A DNA stretch of 64,000 bases. Source: Escherichia coli. Its GTDB lineage: Bacteria > Pseudomonadota > Gammaproteobacteria > Enterobacterales > Enterobacteriaceae. The DNA is taken from the NCBI RefSeq assembly GCF_013315695.1, contig NZ_CP054353.1; one strand, given 5' to 3'. The position numbers and the translations under genes were made by a program. The stretch's first letter is position 1; every line of letters starts with the position of its first letter. The notes beneath the pieces are model-generated. The model was not told the origin of the DNA, ran no database searches, and was given only the letters and a program-made list of their open reading frames with translations. This document shows, piece after piece, positions 1,819 to 49,197 of the stretch.

Positions 1819-1998
1819 ATGGCCGAACATCGTGGTGGTTCAGGAAATTTCGCCGAAGACCGTGAGAAGGCATCCGACGCAGGCCGTAAAGGCGGTCAGC
1901 ATAGCGGCGGTAATTTTAAAAATGATCCGCAACGCGCATCTGAAGCAGGTAAAAAATGCGGTCAACAAAGCGGTGGTAATAAATCAGGAAAATCCTGA
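1819..1998 (+). CDS. yciG: small KGG-repeat stress protein
   Basis: 59-aa product MAEHRGGSGNFAEDREKASDAGRKGGQHSGGNF...; GGGAG 8 nt upstream; the ORF-track ORF starts earlier at 1762. Confidence 0.8.
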   Translation: MAEHRGGSGNFAEDREKASDAGRKGGQHSGGNFKNDPQRASEAGKKCGQQSGGNKSGKS

Positions 1999-2083: not shown

Positions 2084-2584
2084 ATGAATATGAAGACCAT
2101 TGAAGATGTATTTATTCACCTGCTTTCAGACACCTACAGTGCAGAAAAACAATTAACACGTGCACTGGCAAAACTCGCTAGAGCAACATCAAACGAAAAA
2201 TTAAGTCAGGCTTTTCATGCGCACCTCGAGGAAACACATGGACAGATTGAACGTATTGATCAAGTTGTGGAATCAGAATCGAATCTGAAAATTAAGCGCA
2301 TGAAATGTGTGGCAATGGAAGGTCTTATTGAAGAAGCTAATGAGGTCATCGAAAGTACCGAGAAAAACGAAGTGCGTGATGCCGCACTGATTGCCGCAGC
2401 ACAGAAAGTCGAGCATTATGAGATTGCCAGTTACGGGACATTAGCGACGCTGGCTGAACAATTAGGTTACCGTAAAGCAGCTAAGCTTCTGAAAGAAACT
2501 CTTGAAGAAGAAAAGGCCACCGACATCAAACTAACTGATCTGGCCCTTAATAACGTAAATAAGAAAGCCGAAAATAAAGCCTGA
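2084..2584 (+). CDS. yciF: ferritin-like stress protein YciF
   Basis: 166-aa product from MNMKTIEDVFIHLLSDTYSAEKQ...; ORF-track ORF extends upstream to 2036. Confidence 0.85.
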   Translation: MNMKTIEDVFIHLLSDTYSAEKQLTRALAKLARATSNEKLSQAFHAHLEETHGQIERIDQVVESESNLKIKRMKCVAMEGLIEEANEVIESTEKNEVRDAALIAAAQKVEHYEIASYGTLATLAEQLGYRKAAKLLKETLEEEKATDIKLTDLALNNVNKKAENKA

Positions 2585-2629
2585 AATATGAACTTTAACT
2601 TTTAGTCATTTTATAAAGAGGACATTTTC

Positions 2630-2921
2630 ATGAATCGTATTGAACATTATCATGACTGGTTACGTGACGCCCACGCAATGGAAAAGCAAGCCGAATCTAT
2701 GCTTTAATCCATGGCCAGCCGTATAGATAATTATCCTGAACTACGCGCTCGTATTGAACAACATCTTAGTGAAACCAAAAACCGATTGTTCAACTGGAAA
2801 CTATTCTTGATCGTAATGACATTTCACGTTCAGTCATTAAAGATTCCATGAGTAAAATGGCTGCGCTTGGGCAGTCAATCGGTGGTATATTTCCTTCTGA
2901 TGAAATAGTCAAAGGCTCTAT
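2630..2921 (+). pseudogene. yciE: yciE remnant: in-frame stop, -1 frameshift and truncation by IS1
   Basis: ATG at 2630 gives MNRIEHYHDWLRDAHAMEKQAESML then TAA at 2705-2707; same frame continues SMASRIDNYPELRARIEQHLSETKN; homologous reading resumes in another frame (VQLETILDRNDISRSVIKDSMSKMAALGQSIGGIFPSDEIVKGS) and runs into the IS1 end at 2922. Confidence 0.7.
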
Positions 2922-2976
2922 GGTGATGCTGCCAACTTACTGATTTAGTGTATGATGGTGTTTTTGAGGTGCTCCA

Positions 2977-3252
2977 GTGGCTTCTGTTTCTATCAGCTGT
3001 CCCTCCTGTTCAGCTACTGACGGGGTGGTGCGTAACGGCAAAAGCACCGCCGGACATCAGCGCTATCTCTGCTCTCACTGCCGTAAAACATGGCAACTGC
3101 AGTTCACTTACACCGCTTCTCAACCCGGTACGCACCAGAAAATCATTGATATGGCCATGAATGGCGTTGGATGCCGGGCAACAGCCCGCATTATGGGCGT
3201 TGGCCTCAACACGATTTTACGTCACTTAAAAAACTCAGGCCGCAGTCGGTAA
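2977..3252 (+). CDS. insA: IS1 InsA
   Basis: 91-aa product [39 protein letters not shown]... Confidence 0.95.
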
Positions 3253-3674
3253 CCTCGCGCATACAGCCGGGCAGTGACGTCATCGTCTGCGCGGAAATGG
3301 ACGAACAGTGGGGCTATGTCGGGGCTAAATCGCGCCAGCGCTGGCTGTTTTACGCGTATGACAGGCTCCGGAAGACGGTTGTTGCGCACGTATTCGGTGA
3401 ACGCACTATGGCGACGCTGGGGCGTCTTATGAGCCTGCTGTCACCCTTTGACGTGGTGATATGGATGACGGATGGCTGGCCGCTGTATGAATCCCGCCTG
3501 AAGGGAAAGCTGCACGTAATCAGCAAGCGATATACGCAGCGAATTGAGCGGCATAACCTGAATCTGAGGCAGCACCTGGCACGGCTGGGACGGAAGTCGC
3601 TGTCGTTCTCAAAATCGGTGGAGCTGCATGACAAAGTCATCGGGCATTATCTGAACATAAAACACTATCAATAA
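3171..3674 (+). CDS. insB: IS1 InsB frame (expressed as InsAB' by -1 frameshifting)
   Basis: 167-aa frame overlapping the insA 3' end; sequence typical of IS1 transposase. Confidence 0.9.
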
Positions 3675-3888
3675 GTTGGAGTCATTACCGTGATAAACAT
3701 CCGGTTTCTTCCACCATCGCACCGGACAGGCGACTATGAGGGGACAACGCCGCGCTCCGTTAACGCGGTAAACCCCGGTGTGTATCGTTTTTGATTATCC
3801 CCGCACACTCGCGCAGAGGAGTCTCCCTGTCGGGCTGCGGTCTCTGTTAATGAGGGAATACAGCGACGATACGGCGCATCAACAAAAC

Positions 3889-4356
3889 TTATTTCAGGCA
3901 CTGAGTACGGATATATTCCTGCGCCCCTTCCAGTTGCTTCTGCATCGTCATCAGCCGCTCTCTGAGGGTGAAATAATCCCGTGTAACGGTGTCTGCCAGT
4001 TGGGGGCCGGTTGCATTATCCACGCGGGCGGTGCCGGTGGCTTCACGCACGGGACCTGGACAGGTGGCGTTGATACGCAGGCGCTTACGACCAGCGGCAA
4101 CGTCAGCGCGAAGAGTTTCATTTTCAGCTTTCGCATCAGCTAACTCCTTCGTGTATTTTGCATCGAGCGCAGCAACATCACGCTGACGCATCTGCATGTC
4201 AGTAATTGCCGCGTTCGCCAGCTTCAGTTCTCTGACATTTTTGTCGCGCTGGGCTTTGTAGGTAATGGCGTTATCACGGTAATGATTCAGCCCCAGACTA
4301 AGCGCACCACAGGCCACCAGCAGGGCAATGATGACCACGCACAGTACGCGGTTCAT
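3889..4356 (-). CDS. Rz i-spanin
   Basis: 155-aa product with N-terminal TM segment ([16 protein letters not shown]) and coiled-coil-like periplasmic part; contains an embedded Rz1 frame. Confidence 0.85.
3951..4136 (-). CDS. Rz1 o-spanin lipoprotein, embedded in Rz in another frame
   Basis: 61-aa frame with signal peptide plus lipobox-like LVVSAC and a proline-rich mature part. Confidence 0.7.
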
Positions 4357-4654: not shown

Positions 4655-5188
4655 TTATCTGTCGATTCCCCAGCACGCCAGCGCGCTCTCCTGGTCACGA
4701 CGGGATACCTGACCATAACAGTTGTTTGAGCGGATACGGCAGTCTCTGCCACCGTCCTTAATCCACCAGCGAATCGCCTCACACGCTCCCCTGCGATCAC
4801 CTGCATTAATTCGTTTATAAAACGTCGACGGGAAACACTTACCGGGACCAATGTTGTACGGACAGAATGACGCGATCCCCGCTTTCTGGGGTTCACTCAA
4901 TGGCACTCTGATGTTTTTCTCCACCCATGCCAGCGCCTCATCACGCTCAATGGCGTTAACCCGGTCGCATTTTTCCTTCGACAACTTCATGCCCGGAACG
5001 ACAGGTTTGCCATCCACCAGGATGGCACCGCGGCAGATGGTCCAGATACCCGCACCATCACGGTATGCCGTGGTGTGGTTACCTTCCTTTTCATCCAGAA
5101 ACTGGTCGAGAATGTCAGGCGCAGGCGCACCAGCGGCAATCAGCGCCAGAACGGCAGCCGACAGGCCGTATCTGATTTTTGCGTTCAT
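4655..5188 (-). CDS. SAR endolysin (phage lysozyme, T4-lysozyme family)
   Basis: 177-aa product; N-terminal weakly hydrophobic signal-anchor-release segment (YGLSAAVLALIAAGAPAP) followed by a lysozyme-like domain. Confidence 0.85.
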   Translation of the reverse strand: MNAKIRYGLSAAVLALIAAGAPAPDILDQFLDEKEGNHTTAYRDGAGIWTICRGAILVDGKPVVPGMKLSKEKCDRVNAIERDEALAWVEKNIRVPLSEPQKAGIASFCPYNIGPGKCFPSTFYKRINAGDRRGACEAIRWWIKDGGRDCRIRSNNCYGQVSRRDQESALACWGIDR

Positions 5189-5880: not shown

Positions 5881-6096
5881 TTACTCTCCCCGTGCAGCCT
5901 TACGACGGTCCTCTCTGATTTTGAAATACAGGTTAGTCAGATATGTCAGCAGCCCAAACAGCAGACTCCCCAGCACGCCTATTGCCGCCCACTGAGACGG
6001 GGAAACCCTGTCCAGCAACTGCAGGAACCAGTAGCCCGTTCCCACCGCTGACGTGGTGTATGACACACCTGTTGTGATTTTTTCCATCTGGTACAT
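5881..6096 (-). CDS. class II pinholin, phage-21 S-like, dual start (71-aa and 68-aa forms)
   Basis: [13 protein letters not shown]... with two in-frame Met codons 3 codons apart (starts at 6096 and 6087); two TM segments; C-terminus ...[14 protein letters not shown]; ORF-track ORF extends to 6174. Confidence 0.8.
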
Positions 6097-6131
6097 ACCC
6101 CGTCTCCCGTTATCCGGAAGCTGACAACAAT

Positions 6132-6162
6132 AAAAAAAGCCACCAGTTAAGTACTGATGGCT
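6132..6162 (-). terminator. intrinsic terminator between esterase and holin
   Basis: On the minus strand, a 10-bp stem (one mismatch) followed by TTTTTTTATT. Confidence 0.45.
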
Positions 6163-6246
6163 CTGATAACTCATGCAGGCATCTCAGACGACCCACTGAC
6201 ACTACCGGTGAGTTTAACGATACCTTCCATTTGGCTGGCTCACTTT

Positions 6247-8100
6247 TTATGATGATGCCGGTGCATTTATCTCCAGCACCAGACTTTCTATCTCAACGCC
6301 ATACGCTGCATTTTTGGTAATATCCGTCAGCGTCAGCGCATTCAGCCCCAGTGTCAGACTGTCTTTTATGACCTGGAATGCCGGGCCAGCCACTCCATTC
6401 AGTTTCGGAGTAACCGTGGCACTGCCGGCGGTGAACACCAGCTCCAGCGTCTGCCAGTCGTTACTGTAATTCCCGAACTCGCCCAACTTTGTGTTTCCTG
6501 CTTTCTTGTGATGCATCAGATTCAGTTTGCCGTCTGTGGTCTGGGTGAAGAACGACATCAGGAACGGGTTACCAGTCCCGGTCATCGCCACGACGTCAGG
6601 TAACGCTACATCGGTATACAGATAAATTCCCAGACCGAACTGGTTGTTGGTCAGTGCGCCTGACAGTCGAAACTTACAGCTCAGTCTGCCACCCCGTGTC
6701 AGCAGGGAGACTGCGTCATCCACCGGGCGCGTCAGGGACCAGGCTTTATTGCTCTGCTTGGTGATCTTAAATACACCATCTGACAACTGAATTCCGCCAT
6801 TCTTAATGCTCCAGCCCTGCGCAGCAGCGTCTCCGGCTGTCGGCAACAGGGAGATTGTGCGTATGGATGCATCTTCAGACGGCCCCGATGGCGTGTCGCC
6901 GCCGGGCGAGGGTTTGATTTCCGGTGCCTTACCACTAATGAAGGCTAAGGTGCGACCGGCTACGTTCAGAATAGCAGTTGCCATACGATCGGGAATAATG
7001 CCACGACGCGCCCATGAGCTGAAATGCGTCGGGCGATTTGATGATACCCAGTTTTTGTTCGTTCGGGATGCCGAACCGTAATAACCAGACCCGGCAATAT
7101 CAGGATCTTCTGACGGGTTGTTTGTCGGTGTATTAACTCCGCTACCATCGGTCATAAAGGGAACAAAATAAATCTGCTGGGATTCTTTACCTTTATATGC
7201 ACCATATACCACTTCATATTGCGTACCGTGTTCTTGTTTCCACGCGTATGTCGTGTCGCCACAAATCCAGGGGACTGATGCCGGACTTCCACCGTGACAC
7301 TGCGCCGCCAGCCCGGCAAGGTCAGCACGGAACTGCTGTACCATTGCAAGAAATGCTGCTGGCTGCTGGGCGTAACTGGCATTCGTCATATCGAATTCCC
7401 CCTGCATCCAGCATATCGCCAGCAAAACGTTTTTCGGGTTTTTCTGCAATGCTGCCTTCGTGCGGAAAAGCAGATCCTGATATAACGGCTTACCCACTCC
7501 CCAGCGAGCCGAATCCTGACTGGCTCCCGTGGACTCGCTGAATGTCCCCTCCGTGCCCTGGGTGAATGCCGAACCACCACGACAGCATGGTACCAGCAGG
7601 ATCCCCGCATTATTAGGGATATACGGAAGCAGTTTTTTGGCAATATGTAAGCCCTGTCCGACACAGCCGTACTGCCCTTTGCTCAGGTCAGCCCGGGGAT
7701 GGTTAATCGTACTCATATCCTGAACATCATGCAGACAATGGTCAGCAGGAATGATGTCGTTAAATACGCATACTTCACCACCGGGAGTCACTGTGTTACG
7801 ACGGGCCAGTTGCTTAATGCGCGGATGGGGCGCATCGTATGAATCCGGAAGCGGAAGCCCTTCACCGTAAGCCATGGCATTGGATTGCCCGGCCAGTACG
7901 ATGACGTAGTACCACTCCGGCTCAGTTGCACCACTGACGACCACATCACCTTCTGCTGCAATCGCCTGCATCAGGGTATAAGGGGTTATGGCCACCGGAC
8001 TACCAAACGGCTGCCAGCCCTCCTTCAGTTTTTGTGTCAGTCGTTTCGCAAGGTCTGACGGCGATGCCGCCCTGACCACGTCATAGTGTTTAAATGCCAT
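6247..8100 (-). CDS. prophage sialate O-acetylesterase-like SGNH hydrolase (NanS-p-like)
   Basis: 617-aa product; LAGQSNAMAYGEG block typical of SASA/SGNH esterases; GGGAGGA SD 5 nt upstream; position between tRNA genes and holin as in Stx-type lambdoid phages. Confidence 0.65.
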   Translation of the reverse strand: MAFKHYDVVRAASPSDLAKRLTQKLKEGWQPFGSPVAITPYTLMQAIAAEGDVVVSGATEPEWYYVIVLAGQSNAMAYGEGLPLPDSYDAPHPRIKQLARRNTVTPGGEVCVFNDIIPADHCLHDVQDMSTINHPRADLSKGQYGCVGQGLHIAKKLLPYIPNNAGILLVPCCRGGSAFTQGTEGTFSESTGASQDSARWGVGKPLYQDLLFRTKAALQKNPKNVLLAICWMQGEFDMTNASYAQQPAAFLAMVQQFRADLAGLAAQCHGGSPASVPWICGDTTYAWKQEHGTQYEVVYGAYKGKESQQIYFVPFMTDGSGVNTPTNNPSEDPDIAGSGYYGSASRTNKNWVSSNRPTHFSSWARRGIIPDRMATAILNVAGRTLAFISGKAPEIKPSPGGDTPSGPSEDASIRTISLLPTAGDAAAQGWSIKNGGIQLSDGVFKITKQSNKAWSLTRPVDDAVSLLTRGGRLSCKFRLSGALTNNQFGLGIYLYTDVALPDVVAMTGTGNPFLMSFFTQTTDGKLNLMHHKKAGNTKLGEFGNYSNDWQTLELVFTAGSATVTPKLNGVAGPAFQVIKDSLTLGLNALTLTDITKNAAYGVEIESLVLEINAPASS

Positions 8101-23593: not shown

Positions 23594-23842
23594 ATGGCAA
23601 GACTTATTCTGCTCACTGAGTGGGCAAAAGAGGAATTCAGTGAACCGGTCCCTACTCCGAGTACGTTAAGTAAATACGCTAAAGCCGGAATGATATTTCC
23701 TCTCCCCAAAAAAGTTGGAAGACGCTGGCGAGTGGATCCGCAAGCTCGCTTTGTCGGAATGGTAAACAAGCCGGAGGTGATCGCCACAGATCACCCTGCT
23801 TTGAAGAGGATACTGGAAGATGGCGCGCCCGCGAAAATATAA
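23594..23842 (+). CDS. xis: excisionase (Xis-like)
   Basis: 82-aa ORF immediately upstream of and overlapping the integrase gene; contains ...GMIFPLPKKVGRRWRVDP... Confidence 0.6.
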   Translation: MARLILLTEWAKEEFSEPVPTPSTLSKYAKAGMIFPLPKKVGRRWRVDPQARFVGMVNKPEVIATDHPALKRILEDGAPAKI

Positions 23843-24950
23843 AACCGATGTTCCGGGATTATCTCCGTATTTTGACAAAAGAAATAACAAAGTTTACTGG
23901 CGTTACAGGCATCCCATAACAGGCAAAAATCACGGTCTCGGCAGTATTGACCAGAAACTGGCAGAAACTATTGCAGCAGAAGCGAACAGCCGTCTTGCCC
24001 GGCAGCAAATGGAACAAATGCTCAGTCTGCAGGAGAAAATTATTAGTGATACCGGCGGTTCATCAACCGTTACCATTTTTCTGAATAATTACAGAAAAAT
24101 TCAACAGGAAAGATATGAAAACGGCGAGATCAAACTCAACACGCTGAAACAGAAAGCAGCTCCTCTCAGGGTATTTGATGAACGTTTTGGCACCAGACCG
24201 TTAGATGCCATAACCGTAAAAGATGTGGTATCAGTACTGGAAGAGTACAAGGCCAGAGGACATAACAGAATGGGACAAATTTTCAGGAAAGTACTGATCG
24301 ATGTTTTCCGGGAAGCTCAGCAAACGGGCGATGTCCCGCCAGGCTTTAACCCTGCAGAATCGGCAAAAAAACCGCAGGTGCGGATATCAAGACAGCGACT
24401 GACTTTTGATGAGTGGATGATGATTTATAACGCAGCGGAAAAGGATGGTTACTTTTTACAGCGCGGTATGCTGCTGGCACTGATGACAGGCCAGCGCCTT
24501 TCAGATATTTGCAAAATGCAATTTTCGGATATCCGGGATGGTTATCTTCATGTCGAACAGCAAAAAACAGGAACCCGGATTGCCATCCCTCTGGCTCTGC
24601 GTTGCGATAAATTAAATCTCACCCTGGATGATGTGGTGTCATCCTGCCGCGATTGCGTTCTTAGTCCGTGGCTATTGCACCACCATCACGCGAAAGGGAC
24701 AGCTAAGCGCGGCGGGATGGTTAAGCCAGCAACATTAACCGTTGCATTTAAAAAAGCCCGGGATTCTGTGGATTACAACTGGCGTGCTAATGGCACCCCT
24801 CCCTCTTTCCATGAGCAGAGATCTTTATCAGAGCGATTGTTCAGAGAGCAGGGGGTTGATACCAAAATTTTGCTAGGCCATTCGAATCAAAAAATGACCG
24901 ATATTTACAACGACGCACGCGGTAAGGAATGGAAAAAACTGGTCATTTGA
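23820..24950 (+). CDS. int: tyrosine site-specific integrase (lambda Int family)
   Basis: 376-aa product; C-terminal catalytic-domain pattern (...RLSDICKMQFSDI...HEQRSLSERLF...LLGHSNQKMTDIY...) consistent with a tyrosine recombinase. Confidence 0.9.
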   Translation: MARPRKYKTDVPGLSPYFDKRNNKVYWRYRHPITGKNHGLGSIDQKLAETIAAEANSRLARQQMEQMLSLQEKIISDTGGSSTVTIFLNNYRKIQQERYENGEIKLNTLKQKAAPLRVFDERFGTRPLDAITVKDVVSVLEEYKARGHNRMGQIFRKVLIDVFREAQQTGDVPPGFNPAESAKKPQVRISRQRLTFDEWMMIYNAAEKDGYFLQRGMLLALMTGQRLSDICKMQFSDIRDGYLHVEQQKTGTRIAIPLALRCDKLNLTLDDVVSSCRDCVLSPWLLHHHHAKGTAKRGGMVKPATLTVAFKKARDSVDYNWRANGTPPSFHEQRSLSERLFREQGVDTKILLGHSNQKMTDIYNDARGKEWKKLVI

Positions 24951-24984
24951 TGACCAGTTTTGCAGAGGGGTTTTGCAGAGAAAA
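24951..24984. other. prophage-host junction (att region) between int stop and ompW stop
   Basis: 34-bp spacer containing the direct repeat TTTTGCAGAG x2; preceded by palindrome GGTCATTTGATGACC spanning the int stop. Confidence 0.4.
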
Positions 24985-25623
24985 TTAAAAACGATATCCT
25001 GCGGAGAACATAAACACCCACGGATCCAGTCGTACCGAGTCTTTTACGGTAGTAACACCAGATTTGTACTTAGCCGTGGTATCGATATCCATGTACCACA
25101 CTGACATGTTAACCAACCAGTCACGGTTAATCAGATAATCAACCCCCACCTGCCCGGCAGCTCCCCAGGAATCTTTCAGACTGAGATCGGAAAGCCCCGC
25201 CTCTTTGCCATGATCGTTAAATCCATTATCAAAGAAGGTGGTGTAGTTAATACCTGCCCCAACGTAAGGACGGAATTTGCTGCTGGCATCACCAAAATAC
25301 CACTGCGCCATCAGTGTTGGCGGCAGATGATGAACGGTTGCAATATCGCCGGTCGCCCGGGTGCCGATTTTATGGCGGAACGGCGTCGCAGCCAGTAATT
25401 CCACACCAATGTTGTCGGTCGCCATATAAGTAAACGTCAGGCCCAGTTGCGTGTTATTGGTCACGCTGAATCCACCCAGACTTCCTAACGTACCACCAGC
25501 ACCTTCTGTTGGACGTACGGTTGCAGACCCTGCACGCATAAAAAATTCGCCTGCTTCATGCGCATAGGCACTGCCAGAGAGAAGAGTTGTTACTGCCAAA
25601 GCCGCCACTGTTAACTTTTTCAT
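24985..25623 (-). CDS. ompW: outer membrane protein W
   Basis: 212-aa product MKKLTVAALAVTTLLSGSAYA... ending ...FSAGYRF; ORF-track ORF extends upstream to 25701. Confidence 0.95.
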   Translation of the reverse strand: MKKLTVAALAVTTLLSGSAYAHEAGEFFMRAGSATVRPTEGAGGTLGSLGGFSVTNNTQLGLTFTYMATDNIGVELLAATPFRHKIGTRATGDIATVHHLPPTLMAQWYFGDASSKFRPYVGAGINYTTFFDNGFNDHGKEAGLSDLSLKDSWGAAGQVGVDYLINRDWLVNMSVWYMDIDTTAKYKSGVTTVKDSVRLDPWVFMFSAGYRF

Positions 25624-29587: not shown

Positions 29588-31381
29588 ATGAGTATCGGTT
29601 TGAGCAAAGTCGTTACAAGATATAAAAACTTAAAGTTGAAATCATATGTTTTCGACATTGTCAACGTTATGTTTTTATTGTACTTATTTTGTTTTCTAAA
29701 TCAGTCAATAGTTATCATAGGAAATATTGAACCGCCTAAAGAGTTAATTGGTGCAATATTGAATTTCATCTGGCGTTCATCCCCCATTTTGTTTATTTAT
29801 TTGTTATTTAGAATAATAAACATTCCAATTTTTCTATGTTCTTATTTATCAGGCATCGCAATTATAACATTGATGTTTGTGAACAGTACTAAAATGGCGT
29901 TAACCGGTGAGCCTTTATCATTTAATGACATTGTTTCTGGATTCAATTTGAGTGTCGCAGGAAAATACCTCAACTTATCATCCATTACTTACTCTGTCGC
30001 TATTCTAATTGGCGCAATAATCTCAATCCTACTTAGCAAAAAAACGGTCACAACAAGAAAAAATTATATATCGTTATTTCTTTTAATTATCATTACGATC
30101 CCCTTTTCATTCTACCCCTATATTGGAACCATTTTTAGCCCTAACAATAGGATTTCTGAAATCATAAACTCCAGCGCGAACAACTTAAATATAAAATATA
30201 TTTACTGGAATTGGTCTCAAAATATTGGCGTTAATGGCTTGCCAATGCATATAATACAAACAAGTGTCAGAAAATCTGTACCACATGCAACTGATGCAGA
30301 ACAATTAAGATATTTAGATGAAAAAAGATCTTTAGTATCCACTCATATAAAAAATAAAACCATTATTTATGTTTTATGTGAATCATGTTGGTATGATAAA
30401 AAAAACTTCCGAGAAAATTTCAAACCTGTTATTGATGAAGGTTACAGTGAATTACGGGCCATCTCACCAGTTTACGGTGGAGGTACCGCAAATGCCGAAT
30501 TTGAAATGCTGACAGGACTACCAAGTAATTCAGATAAAATATCAGGAATCATCTATCAAGAATATTCAGATGCATTCAAACCAAAAGTTGACGCATTACC
30601 TAATGCCCTGAAAAACAAAGGCTATATTACTTTCGCAGCACATAATTACCAAGCAGACTTTTGGTATAGGAATAAAATTTACCCTAAATTTGGATTTGAT
30701 AGATTTGATAGCATTATTAATATGGGAGATTTACCACCAGAGTATAGCAGTATTAAAAAACCATGGCAGTGGCAACCTGATGACTACCTGCTTTACAATG
30801 CAGCATTAAAAGCCATCCAAAATGCAGGAAACAAAGATATTTTTGTACATTTGATCACTATGTCAACTCATGGTCCTTATCAACACATTAATGATTATGG
30901 TGAAGGTGTTTATACCTATGAGATTAATGAGGCAGTCAAAAGATTCGTTCAATTTTCACAGCAAGTAGAAAAAATAGATCCAAATGCTGTAATCGTCTTT
31001 TACGGTGACCATAAACCACCACTAAATAAATATTTCGTCGAAAATGGGGTGCTACCAAGTAATATTTTCAACAAAATCGGAGAAGAAAAAGATGAAGATT
31101 TCGTCTTTAAAATGAGCACAACCCCACTCGATTTTGGTGATGTTCCTGTGCTTATTAAATCAAATGATAAAGACGCCATTAAAAAATTCATAACCGACGC
31201 CAATGGAAAACCTTTTTTCTGTGTATCTTCATTAGTTGATAAACATTTCATTCAATCTGGATTGGTATCATTTAATCACAACGCAAAGCATGTCTGTGAA
31301 AACAGTGATAACTTTAATTATGATAAGTTAATTAACATGACCCCGTCGTGGATTTATTCAATGTCATTATTTCACGATTAG
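29588..31381 (+). CDS. sulfatase-superfamily membrane protein (LTA-synthase / phosphoethanolamine-transferase-like), AT-rich
   Basis: 597-aa product; N-terminal multi-TM region, C-terminal domain with YVLCESCW and STHGPYQH motifs; codon usage strongly AT-biased. Confidence 0.6.
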   Translation: MSIGLSKVVTRYKNLKLKSYVFDIVNVMFLLYLFCFLNQSIVIIGNIEPPKELIGAILNFIWRSSPILFIYLLFRIINIPIFLCSYLSGIAIITLMFVNSTKMALTGEPLSFNDIVSGFNLSVAGKYLNLSSITYSVAILIGAIISILLSKKTVTTRKNYISLFLLIIITIPFSFYPYIGTIFSPNNRISEIINSSANNLNIKYIYWNWSQNIGVNGLPMHIIQTSVRKSVPHATDAEQLRYLDEKRSLVSTHIKNKTIIYVLCESCWYDKKNFRENFKPVIDEGYSELRAISPVYGGGTANAEFEMLTGLPSNSDKISGIIYQEYSDAFKPKVDALPNALKNKGYITFAAHNYQADFWYRNKIYPKFGFDRFDSIINMGDLPPEYSSIKKPWQWQPDDYLLYNAALKAIQNAGNKDIFVHLITMSTHGPYQHINDYGEGVYTYEINEAVKRFVQFSQQVEKIDPNAVIVFYGDHKPPLNKYFVENGVLPSNIFNKIGEEKDEDFVFKMSTTPLDFGDVPVLIKSNDKDAIKKFITDANGKPFFCVSSLVDKHFIQSGLVSFNHNAKHVCENSDNFNYDKLINMTPSWIYSMSLFHD

Positions 31382-31731
31382 TATCTAGAAAATAATTGTA
31401 ATAAATCATCATTAATTATGTAGACGCCTAAAATTAGGCATCTACATTTTATTAGAAAAGAGGTTGTCCTGACTAGGTTGTGGAAATGTGCATCGCATAA
31501 ATCAAGGCTATAGAGCATGAAAGTGCGTTCTTCCCCCTCTACCATTGATAAATATTTAAAAGTGCTCACGCTGGATTCGATCCAGGCATTAGCATCTTTG
31601 AGTGAGAATTCCCAGTTAACTTTGCTCAACCCCTGAACAAATCGCTGTGTAGTGACGGTCTTCCGGCCATTCGGCTCTTGCTGTATCGAAGAATACCAGG
31701 CTATTTCAATATCGCTGCGTCGTGGCATCAT
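31378..31731 (-). CDS. hypothetical protein (117 aa), possibly a gene fragment
   Basis: ATG pair with GAGGG upstream; divergent from the dinI-like gene; ORF-track ORF extends to 31977. Confidence 0.35.
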   Translation of the reverse strand: MMPRRSDIEIAWYSSIQQEPNGRKTVTTQRFVQGLSKVNWEFSLKDANAWIESSVSTFKYLSMVEGEERTFMLYSLDLCDAHFHNLVRTTSFLIKCRCLILGVYIINDDLLQLFSRY

Positions 31732-31771
31732 TACGCCCTCTCTTGAATACCGGATAAAAACACAGTATAAA

Positions 31772-31791
31772 TACTGTATATACACCCAGTA
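31772..31791. promoter_or_regulatory. LexA (SOS) box upstream of the dinI-like gene
   Basis: TACTGTATATACACCCAGTA: CTGT-N8-CCAG, one mismatch from the CTGT-N8-ACAG core; overlapping palindrome ACAGTATAAATACTGT just upstream. Confidence 0.6.
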
Positions 31792-31806
31792 AAGAGGCAA
31801 TGAGCA

Positions 31807-32034
31807 ATGTTCGTGGAACTCGTTTATGGCAAAAGGAATTTTGATGGACTGCCCGGTGCAAAAGATATCATTCTGGGCGAGTTGACCAAGAGGGTTCACC
31901 GGATTTTCCCCGGCGCTGATGTCCGGGTTAAACCGATGATGACATTGCCGGCGATCAACACTGACGCCAACAAGCATGAGAATGAACAGATAAGCCGTAC
32001 TGTTCAGGAAATGTTTGAAGAGACTGATATGTAG
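31807..32034 (+). CDS. DinI-like protein
   Basis: 75-aa product MFVELVYGKRNFDGLPGAKDIILGELTKRVHRIFPGADVRVKPMMTLPAINTDANKHENEQISRTVQEMFEETDM; AGAGG RBS; LexA box upstream. Confidence 0.7.
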   Translation: MFVELVYGKRNFDGLPGAKDIILGELTKRVHRIFPGADVRVKPMMTLPAINTDANKHENEQISRTVQEMFEETDM

Positions 32035-32122
32035 CTGTTTTCAGATTAAACGCCTTGAACCGTCACACTGATTAAGTACAATCCGGCGTGGTTGCGGCTT
32101 CCAGATTATAAGAATGATTCCC

Positions 32123-32550
32123 TTACTCACTTTTCAGCGCATTCACTTCTTCTCGTAATTCACTGAGTTCGTTCATTAGTACCAGAATCGCTTCATGATG
32201 CAACGCTGCCGCAACGCCGTAAGTATCTGGAGAGAGTACTCCTTCCACCATAGTTCCATCAGGAAGTTGACGATCACCTCCCTCAGTTACTGCCTGGGGG
32301 AAGATTTTCTTAACATCCTGCGCGATAAACCCAATCCCCCATTGTCCGGTATCTTTTCGCGTCCAGGAACAACCTTTTAGCATTTCCATCTTACTGAGCG
32401 GGTCTCCAATTCTGGACACTCCATCTTTCAGGCGGCCATCTGAATTCGGAACCCATGCTCCAGGCGCTACAGCGTTACCAGTTGATTTCATAAAGCTCCA
32501 TGTGGTTCCTGAGCTTGCGTTTGCTACCTGAATATTCCCTGATAAAGAAC
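32123..32550 (-). pseudogene. C-terminal fragment of a phage tail-fibre protein (intramolecular chaperone-type domain), 5' end removed by IS insertion
   Basis: ...GQWGIGFIAQDVKKIFPQAVTEGGDRQLPDGTMVEGVLSPDTYGVAAALHHEAILVLMNELSELREEVNALKSE; the frame runs upstream into the IS inverted repeat. Confidence 0.6.
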
Positions 32551-33473
<923 letters not shown>

Positions 33474-33602
33474 GTATCGGTAGAAAAAAGAAACTTTACC
33501 AGCCTGACTGATCCTTGCGTTCAGCCCATGAGAATCTGAAATGGTTTCGATATCATCTCGTTTCTTGCCCAGGGACTTCCTGAGCTTTGTGTCGGTAATC
33601 AT
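33474..33602 (-). pseudogene. N-terminal fragment (43 codons) of a P4-type integrase, cut by the IS element
   Basis: [43 protein letters not shown] resembles the DUF4102-type N-terminus of P4-family integrases; frame runs into the IS right end. Confidence 0.5.
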
Positions 33603-47771: not shown

Positions 47772-49197
47772 TAATGCCAGTCAGTTAAGCAACTGACTGG
47801 CTCTTTTTCGGGGCTGTGGGGTATTTCCAGGGCCTCTCCTTTACCACTCTCGGGAAGGCCCTTTCCCTTCTTGTCGGTAATTTCACAAGTTGTCCCATAC
47901 TTGCAAGATCGCGCATCAGCTCCGGTATACGTCCCGGTGAAGCGCCCTGCAATGTCATCAGCATTCTCATCACCATTCCGCATGATTCTGAGAAACTCAG
48001 TTGATTCGGCCAGTAACCTTTCAGATGTTCCGCCATTTTAATCATCTGATATCTCACCAGATTATAAGCCAGTAAGACACCCCACAGCTCTTGCTCCACA
48101 AGCTCCGGTTTTTTACTTCTCAGCGTCAGCCTGCTCAGTTGCATCGTCTGTTTTATCTCCCTGTATCCCAGTTCGATTTCCCAGCGATGACTGTACAGAT
48201 CCGCCATTTCTCCTCCGGGGAAGCGCATGGCGTCCGTCATCGACGTCAGCAGATGGCAGACTTTTCCTTTGCGCGTCACGGTCAGCAGGCGGGCTGTCAC
48301 TTCATTTCCCAGTCCCGGCCACTTTTTTCGTGCCTGCGGGCTGGTTTTCAGCTTCACCAGATGATCGCCTTTACCCAGTTTTCTGATCTCTTCATATTGC
48401 GCTCCCTTTCTGAGAGGTATCATCCAGTGGCGGTGTTCTCCCGCCAGGCTCCAGGCATTTAACAGTCCCAGTGAGTAATAACCTTTATCCATTAACGTCA
48501 GAGTGTTATCGCCGGTTTGTTCTATAAGTTGCTCAGCAAGCTCATTTTCGCTGTTCTTCATCGTGCCGAAGGCTGCAGCCGTCAGCAGATGGCTGGTCAG
48601 TTCCATCTGGCAGACCATTTTGACCTGCGGGTAGAGCGCCGGGTTCCCGGCATGTGTCTGGCGGGGGAAGGCTGCATCGTTCTCTGGTGTATCCGGTGTG
48701 CGCCAGAACACACCATCGATGGCCAGCAGGGTCAGGCCGCACCAGTGCGGATGCGGCGTGGCGTTATGCCAGAGCTGCGCTGTTTTCGTGAACACGCGGC
48801 GGACAGCCTCACTTCCCAGGCGCTGGCGGGCCTGAATAACGGCACTGGGGGCAACGAAGGGGCGATTGCCCGGCAGCATGATGTCCAGGCGATTCACAAT
48901 CTGGTGAAGAGGTTCTTTACGCTCAAGCGCCATGCCAACAATACACCAGACCATCATTTCGAGGGGAAGACGGCGCTTGCGTAGCGTTACAGTACCTGAT
49001 TCGGCAAGGCAACGAGAGATGAGTTCGGGGTCGAGGTAATCCCCCAGAGAAGTCAGTGGGTTACGCAGAGAATCGTAACGGGATACCAGATCAAGAGCCT
49101 GTCCAATGTGCATAAAAAAATCCGGAAACAAGTGAGCGTTTCCGGATTCTTACACAGCCACTGGATCGGTCAACTGATCCTTAACTGATCGGCATTA
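47772..49197 (-). mobile_element. IS4 insertion sequence (1426 bp) with 12-bp target-site duplication
   Basis: Terminal inverted repeats TAATGCCAGTCAGTTAAG... (47772-) and ...CTTAACTGATCGGCATTA (-49197); TCCCTTCTGGGG present on both flanks (47760-47771 and 49198-49209). Confidence 0.9.
47785..49113 (-). CDS. insG: IS4 transposase
   Basis: 442-aa product [40 protein letters not shown]...; ORF-track ORF adds 6 upstream codons. Confidence 0.9.

Follow-up and report, generated by a model that had tools for sequence, protein, structure and literature searches.

The analysed stretch of 64,000 nucleotides of Escherichia coli DNA (contig NZ_CP054353.1; the window) carries a dead yciE gene that very probably decayed in three dated steps, a frameshift followed by a stop codon and then by an IS1 insertion, with the IS1 copy subsequently making adjacent deletions; we give this reading a probability of about 94%. 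The first step would have been a 1-bp deletion in codon 52 that killed yciE in the ancestor of about 123 of 5,426 complete genomes, the second a G>T exchange turning codon 26 into TAA, in a sub-clade that numbers 116 genomes and includes SMS-3-5, and the third the entry of IS1 into yciE after nucleotide 293 in a small and recent sub-lineage comprising the window, MSB1_4I and AF3. From its right end this IS1 would have made deletions rightwards, of 705 bp in AF3 and of about 26 kb in the window, and every step in yciE after the first was presumably selectively neutral. The relevant features of the window are the following.

Up to 1438: trpB-trpA, at the start of the window.
1819 to 1998, plus strand: yciG, first gene of yciGFE, an open frame of 59 aa with KGG repeats (ORF, Pfam KGG match).
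2084 to 2584, plus strand: yciF, intact, 166 aa, DUF892 (Pfam DUF892 profile positions 1-158 of 159).
2630 to 2921, plus strand: remnant of the yciE pseudogene, corresponding to K-12 nucleotides 1-293 of 507 with one base missing.
2705 to 2707, plus strand: nonsense codon, GAA (Glu26) to TAA by G>T at 2705; second lesion in time.
Between 2783 and 2784, plus strand: 1-bp deletion, the A of CAG (Gln52, codon 52); first lesion in time.
2922 to 3689, plus strand: IS1 of the IS1A type, 768 bp (inverted repeats, ORFs, identity to AF3); third lesion in time.
3689/3690, no strand: deletion junction between the IS1 right end and prophage DNA about 200 bp downstream of Rz (collinear AF3 mapping).
3690 to 24970, minus strand: remnant of a lambdoid prophage, about 21 kb, defective (MSB1_4I and AF3 annotation, ORFs, blast mapping).
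3889 to 4356: Rz lysis gene.
4655 to 5188: lysozyme.
23820 to 24950, plus strand: int.
24985 to 25623, minus strand: ompW, intact, integration target of the prophage and normal right-hand neighbour of yciE (ORF, MSB1_4I and AF3 annotation).

A sequence-only reading of the window had placed the opening of a yciE-type frame at 2630 and a TAA at its codon 26, and both translation and the alignment with K-12 bear this out: frame 1 begins with the ATG at 2630 and reads MNRIEHYHDWLRDAHAMEKQAESML up to the TAA at 2705-2707. The same reading put a frameshift near 2775. The frameshift is real and the later frame does read VQLETILDRN..., but its site lies slightly further 3', at 2783/2784, where AACCAGATT of K-12 yciE is aligned with AACCGATT of the window. 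The shifted frame terminates at the TGA 2849-2851 and would encode about 73 aa; past 2783/2784 the YciE sequence IVQLETILDRNDISRSVIKDSMSKMAALGQSIGGIFPSDEIVKGS (IVQLETILDRN...EIVKGS) runs on in the third frame. Only three differences separate K-12 from the 292-nt remnant, namely the G>T of the stop, the 1-bp deletion and a substitution at 2892. The alignment of yciE sequences from the window, K-12, SMS-3-5, MS 21-1, 510016, MSB1_4I and AF3 contains all three of the separate lesions that had been proposed for the gene, and at the positions of the stop and the deletion K-12 and strain 510016 have GAA and CAG.

The homology of the remnant and its position after yciF, in a retained synteny trpA-yciG-yciF-yciE, assign it to the YciE/DUF892 family. 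Compared with Pfam DUF892 (PF05974), one of its peptides covers profile positions 4-24 with 28.2 bits (above the 23.7-bit cut-off), and the second covers positions 27-50 with 22.3 bits (just under it). The intact YciE of K-12 (b1257) is a full-length DUF892 protein, in which the profile spans residues 5-156, and its structure has been solved (PDB 3OGH). The window has no uninterrupted yciE frame for the whole domain of about 159 residues; the stop (codon 26), the frameshift (codon 52) and the truncation (after nucleotide 293) make its yciE a pseudogene and not a functional DUF892 member. Public annotation already flags the remnant as a pseudogene: the copy of MSB1_4I, identical in sequence, bears the RefSeq label "frameshifted; internal stop; incomplete; missing C-terminus", the same label is given in AF3, and PGAP marks the point lesions in SMS-3-5, MS 21-1, AF14, AF10, AF3 and MSB1_4I. 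No description of the allele of the window was found in the searched literature on yciE pseudogenes and on yciGFE. In sum, the yciE of the window is an ordinary dead copy of an E. coli stress gene.

The order of the lesions follows from their distribution. We searched 5,426 complete E. coli genomes by megablast with 40-mers centred on each lesion; a central mismatch leaves no 28-base seed, so that this search finds carriers only. The TAA 40-mer was recovered in 116 genomes and the deletion 40-mer in 123, which makes both lesions common property of a lineage in which the pseudogene is fixed. A synthetic 118-mer combining GAA with the deletion has exact matches in eight genomes, two of which (TCM3e1 and CE-O153H30) are annotated as "frameshifted" only. 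The converse synthetic 119-mer, with the TAA and no deletion, has zero exact matches in this collection, whose commonest allele is the wild-type 119-mer. The presence of eight frameshift-only genomes and of no stop-only genome indicates that the frameshift came first, then the stop and then IS1. Both point lesions are found together within a full-length pseudogene of 506 nt in SMS-3-5, MS 21-1, AF14 and AF10, and according to the SNP pattern over 1439-2921 the frameshift-only strains represent the sister lineage. This nesting was established by parsimony from exact 40-, 118- and 119-mer matches and not by a phylogeny, so that recombination could blur it. The sum of 116 and eight is 124, as compared to 123 genomes with the deletion 40-mer, and the mismatch of one genome is probably caused by a SNP close by, which would abolish the blast seed. 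From what is known of SMS-3-5 and ST648, we take the clade with the yciE lesions to belong to phylogroup F.

The allele of the SMS-3-5 clade (RefSeq "frameshifted; internal stop") has the same G>T and 1-bp deletion as the window. Over the 922 bp of yciF plus the yciE remnant the window shares 100% identity with MS 21-1, AF14 and AF10 and 99.8% with SMS-3-5. In contrast to the window, the copies of this clade measure 506 nt, keep their terminator, are followed by ompW or by the truncated ompW' and contain no IS1. The yciE of K-12 has the same operon context trpA-yciG-yciF-yciE, whereas the copy of the window has the stop and the frameshift and is without the 3' 214 nt; the next gene in K-12 is ompW, and in the window IS1 follows and then a prophage.

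The claim that an IS1 end cuts yciE at 2922 proved right, since the left inverted repeat GGTGATGCTGCCAACTTACTGAT starts at precisely this position; the right end of the element is GGTAATGACTCCAACTTATTGAT. Its size of about 768 bp and its imperfect terminal inverted repeats of about 23 bp are those of IS1, with insA at 2977-3252, an insB ORF at 3171-3674 and, inside their overlap near 3228-3234, the A6C motif TTAAAAAAC for a programmed -1 frameshift. The element is 100% identical to the IS1 of AF3, which is annotated as IS1A family transposase with programmed frameshift, and a scan of the window for further IS1 copies left the one at 2922-3689 as the only one. The 9-bp flanks of this IS1 (AGGCTCTAT and GTGATAAAC) differ, i.e. 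a target-site duplication is absent, which an adjacent deletion would explain. Among the complete genomes the 40-mer of the left junction occurs only in MSB1_4I, AF3 and 510016, and that of the right junction only in MSB1_4I.

The truncation by IS1 is not a simple cut: the element does interrupt yciE, but it also bounds on the left a deletion of about 26 kb. Blast mapping places window positions 2156-3689 on positions 1-1534 of the AF3 locus and 3690-26816 on 26863-50000 of the same strand, so the AF3 interval 1535-26862 (25,328 bp) is absent in the window, starting exactly at the right end of IS1. AF3 itself has IS1 at the same nucleotide and has lost, from the IS1 end onwards, 705 bp that are present in AF14 and AF10 (AF14 locus 5923-6627), which brings the total loss of the window relative to AF14 and AF3 to about 26 kb (705 + 25,328 bp). 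AF14 and AF10 have a full-length yciE pseudogene followed by 126 nt of ompW' (attR), VapA/VapB-like genes, YkgJ and prophage tail genes, and in MS 21-1 the full-length pseudogene is followed by ompW' and the tail end of the prophage; the arrangement of AF14 and AF10 is likely the ancestral one. With this DNA the window has lost the last 214 bp of yciE together with the terminator, the attR remnant ompW', the cargo genes (VapA/VapB-like, YkgJ), Lom and every terminase, head and tail gene. We also considered that the DNA beyond the right end of IS1 had been inverted or translocated, and ruled this out because it is collinear with AF3, in the same orientation, and because the window has IS1 only once.

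A fixed left junction of IS1 combined with collinear right-hand deletions of varied length is the textbook picture of IS1 adjacent deletion. Such deletions were reportedly described by Reif and Saedler in 1975. In the classic cases, i.e. the gal region and genome reduction of the Shigella type, one IS1 end stays fixed and the other abuts collinear DNA that was once distant, the target duplication is lost and the deletions of relatives vary from the same left junction, exactly as in the window, where the DNA past IS1 is collinear and not inverted and the missing interval begins at the IS1 end. We detected no mechanistic difference from these cases, and the deletion in the window merely happens to disable the prophage at ompW.

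The deletion would have arisen by intramolecular transposition of IS1, not by recombination of one IS1 copy with another. An alternative and unlikely, albeit serious, scenario is homologous recombination between two direct IS1 repeats, one in yciE and the other downstream of Rz. Either route would end in a lone IS1 whose flanks do not match and lack a duplication, as observed, and IS1 copies are plentiful in this group, with at least 40 matching pieces in MSB1_4I and AF3. However, none of the sampled genomes has an IS1 at the distal end point: the 40-mer of the right junction is confined to MSB1_4I, and AF3 is uninterrupted at this position. Moreover, AF3 and the window share the left junction and differ in the length of their deletions to the right, which is the classic pattern of adjacent deletion and argues for intramolecular transposition.

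The prophage that flanks the deletion is integrated at the 3' end of ompW, the right-hand neighbour of yciE in the layout of K-12 and SMS-3-5. In AF3 the full prophage measures about 47 kb and ends at int beside an intact ompW. The prophage of the window retains Rz, lysozyme, holin, a SASA-family esterase, three tRNA genes (Ile, Arg, Arg), a DNA methyltransferase, Q, RusA, hokD, QueH, replication and immunity genes, dicB, exo, xis and int. It has lost every gene for terminase, head and tail, and judged from its gene content it is therefore predicted to be defective and should be annotated as such from 3690 to about 24970. One and the same IS1 hence both truncates a chromosomal gene and disables the adjoining prophage. 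The nearest complete genome is that of MSB1_4I (NZ_LR898874.1), a close relative that is collinear over 49.4 kb with 99.945% identity (16 SNPs and one 11-bp indel). At 24968 the window is without 11 bp of MSB1_4I (GGTTTTGCAGA, window strand); this indel falls into the short spacer that separates the stop codons of int (24950) and ompW (24985), which lies in or beside the core of the attachment site.

A second IS1 copy has struck yciE elsewhere. Strain 510016 (NZ_CP025851.1; locus L007, 2715-3500) has an IS1 that sits at the same yciE nucleotide as in the window, with the same orientation, and the 40-mers of the left junction are identical. Unlike the copy of the window it is a simple insertion, with a 9-bp duplication of AGGCTCTAT and both halves of yciE kept, and its yciE allele is K-12-like (GAA, CAG, C at 2892), with neither stop nor frameshift. 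The two IS1 copies differ by 3 nt, which, together with the K-12-like allele, identifies the insertion of 510016 as an independent event. This coincidence suggests that nucleotides 293/294 of yciE (window 2913-2921, AGGCTCTAT) are a locally preferred IS1 target. The G+C content of the yci region is 40%, as compared to 49% for the whole window. We found no general excess of IS1 in the yciGFE operon: IS1 lies within about 1.1 kb of the yciE segment in 17 genomes, which by a rough estimate is about what chance would provide at some ten copies per 5-Mb genome, and only the same-nucleotide coincidence in 510016 stands out. Strain F829 (NZ_OY754443.1; locus L006, 2312-3589) has an IS1 inside yciF with a duplication of GTTGTGGAG and an intact yciE, and about 14 more genomes have IS1 elsewhere in or near the operon.

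The lesions had been taken as a sign of relaxed selection on yciE. Our results are consistent with relaxed selection, but several lesions alone are no proof of it. The gene was dead after the frameshift, so the later stop and the IS1 insertion would be neutral by default, and the number of lesions is a measure of the time since inactivation and not of the selective regime at the first hit. The nested counts (about 123, 116, and two plus the window) show a sequential decay that is compatible with a neutral as well as with a selected first loss. A faster decay of the pseudogene was not seen: since the split from the frameshift-only lineage yciE has two derived changes in 292 nt versus two to three in the 501 nt of yciF, and these numbers are too small for a comparison of rates.

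The dispensability of yciE is independently supported by at least 701 genomes, of the 5,426 complete ones, that show no yciF-yciE match at all. In the two that we inspected, 2017_APHA (ST131; locus L012, 5440-5630) and MS20674 (locus L013, 5440-5620), the whole operon yciG-yciF-yciE is absent, and about 50 bp past trpA a 3' remnant of ompW is followed by prophage DNA. The yciGFE stress operon thus appears to be dispensable in several successful lineages of E. coli. According to PMC7705038, which cites Beraud et al. 2010, yciGFE depends on sigma-S and is under the control of McbR/YncC and H-NS. As yciE is the last gene of yciGFE, its loss entails no polar cost for yciG and yciF.

Both of these neighbours had been described as intact. 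YciF is indeed intact, with 100% identity to SMS-3-5 and 99% to K-12, and yciG is open, but the second KGG motif of YciG has a G47C exchange (G>T at 1957) with respect to both K-12 and SMS-3-5. G47C is confined, in the set of 11 sequences compared, to the window, AF3 and MSB1_4I, i.e. to the sub-lineage that bears the IS1. The exchange may represent the first decay of the remaining operon or a mere neutral marker; judged from the sequences, "intact" holds for yciF and only formally for yciG.

Loss of yciE might, instead of reflecting relaxed selection and drift, have been positively selected in this clade. We regard this scenario as improbable. It could explain why the first lesion is fixed over a clade of about 123 genomes, why so many genomes have no yciF-yciE match, with the entire operon absent from both of those inspected (one of them ST131), and why a distinct IS1 copy struck the same nucleotide in the unrelated strain 510016. 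The usual signature of adaptive loss is a series of recurrent independent knock-outs. In the collection, however, only a single origin of point mutations was detected, further independent knock-outs were not seen besides the sporadic IS1 hits, and the latter are about as frequent as expected by chance (17 genomes within about 1.1 kb; rough estimate). Furthermore, yciF, the paralogue in the same operon, has been kept intact. Adaptive loss has no positive support. A still bolder proposal, which we consider more doubtful again, is that nucleotides 293/294 (AGGCTCTAT) are a true IS1 hot spot and that loss of yciE or yciGFE is recurrently favoured in extra-intestinal E. coli; if it were true, the nested lesions would mark an adaptive loss and not a neutral decay.

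The possibility that stop and frameshift are sequencing or assembly errors, with yciE being intact up to IS1, can be set aside for practical purposes. Single-base indels are a frequent artefact of long reads, but the identical G>T in 116 and the identical deletion in 123 independent complete genomes, from many laboratories and hosts, rule out an assembly error; moreover, the deleted A lies outside any homopolymer run (AACCAGATT), and the PGAP flags in the six genomes named above refer to the same lesions. The comparison with other E. coli that the sequence-only reading had proposed came out in the same sense, because intact yciE homologues are free of the lesion bases of the window, and more than 100 independent assemblies contain the lesions. 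With GAA and CAG in K-12 and 510016 and the wild-type 119-mer as the commonest allele, the lesions are not a matter of chance. Stop and frameshift are genuine, and annotators should not "correct" them. There is likewise next to no prospect of a functional product of the remnant by recoding (read-through plus frameshift) or restart, for although the remnant is probably transcribed, with an intact operon promoter, yciG and yciF before it, even perfect recoding would leave just 97 of the 168 residues of a protein whose four-helix-bundle DUF892 domain extends over residues 5-156.

The DUF892 pseudogene, the IS1A element, the IS1 adjacent deletion and the defective lambdoid prophage at ompW are all of known kinds. 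The locus provides a clean example of three pseudogene lesions that can be ordered by their distribution in the population, with little import beyond bookkeeping. Its shared frameshift and stop offer possible, and simple, markers of the clade to which SMS-3-5 belongs. Further to the right, with coordinates transferred from MSB1_4I, a second degraded mobile patch lies between kch and yciI (about 29,800-33,600; MSB1_4I locus L008, 15805-19534). It contains an integrase Arm-domain fragment, an IS3-family transposase (about 32587-33465), a tail-fibre-domain gene, a DinI-like gene, an LTA-synthase-family gene and a frameshifted gene for an SOS-response peptidase. An IS4 adjoins adhE at about 47785-49131, this position likewise being transferred from MSB1_4I.
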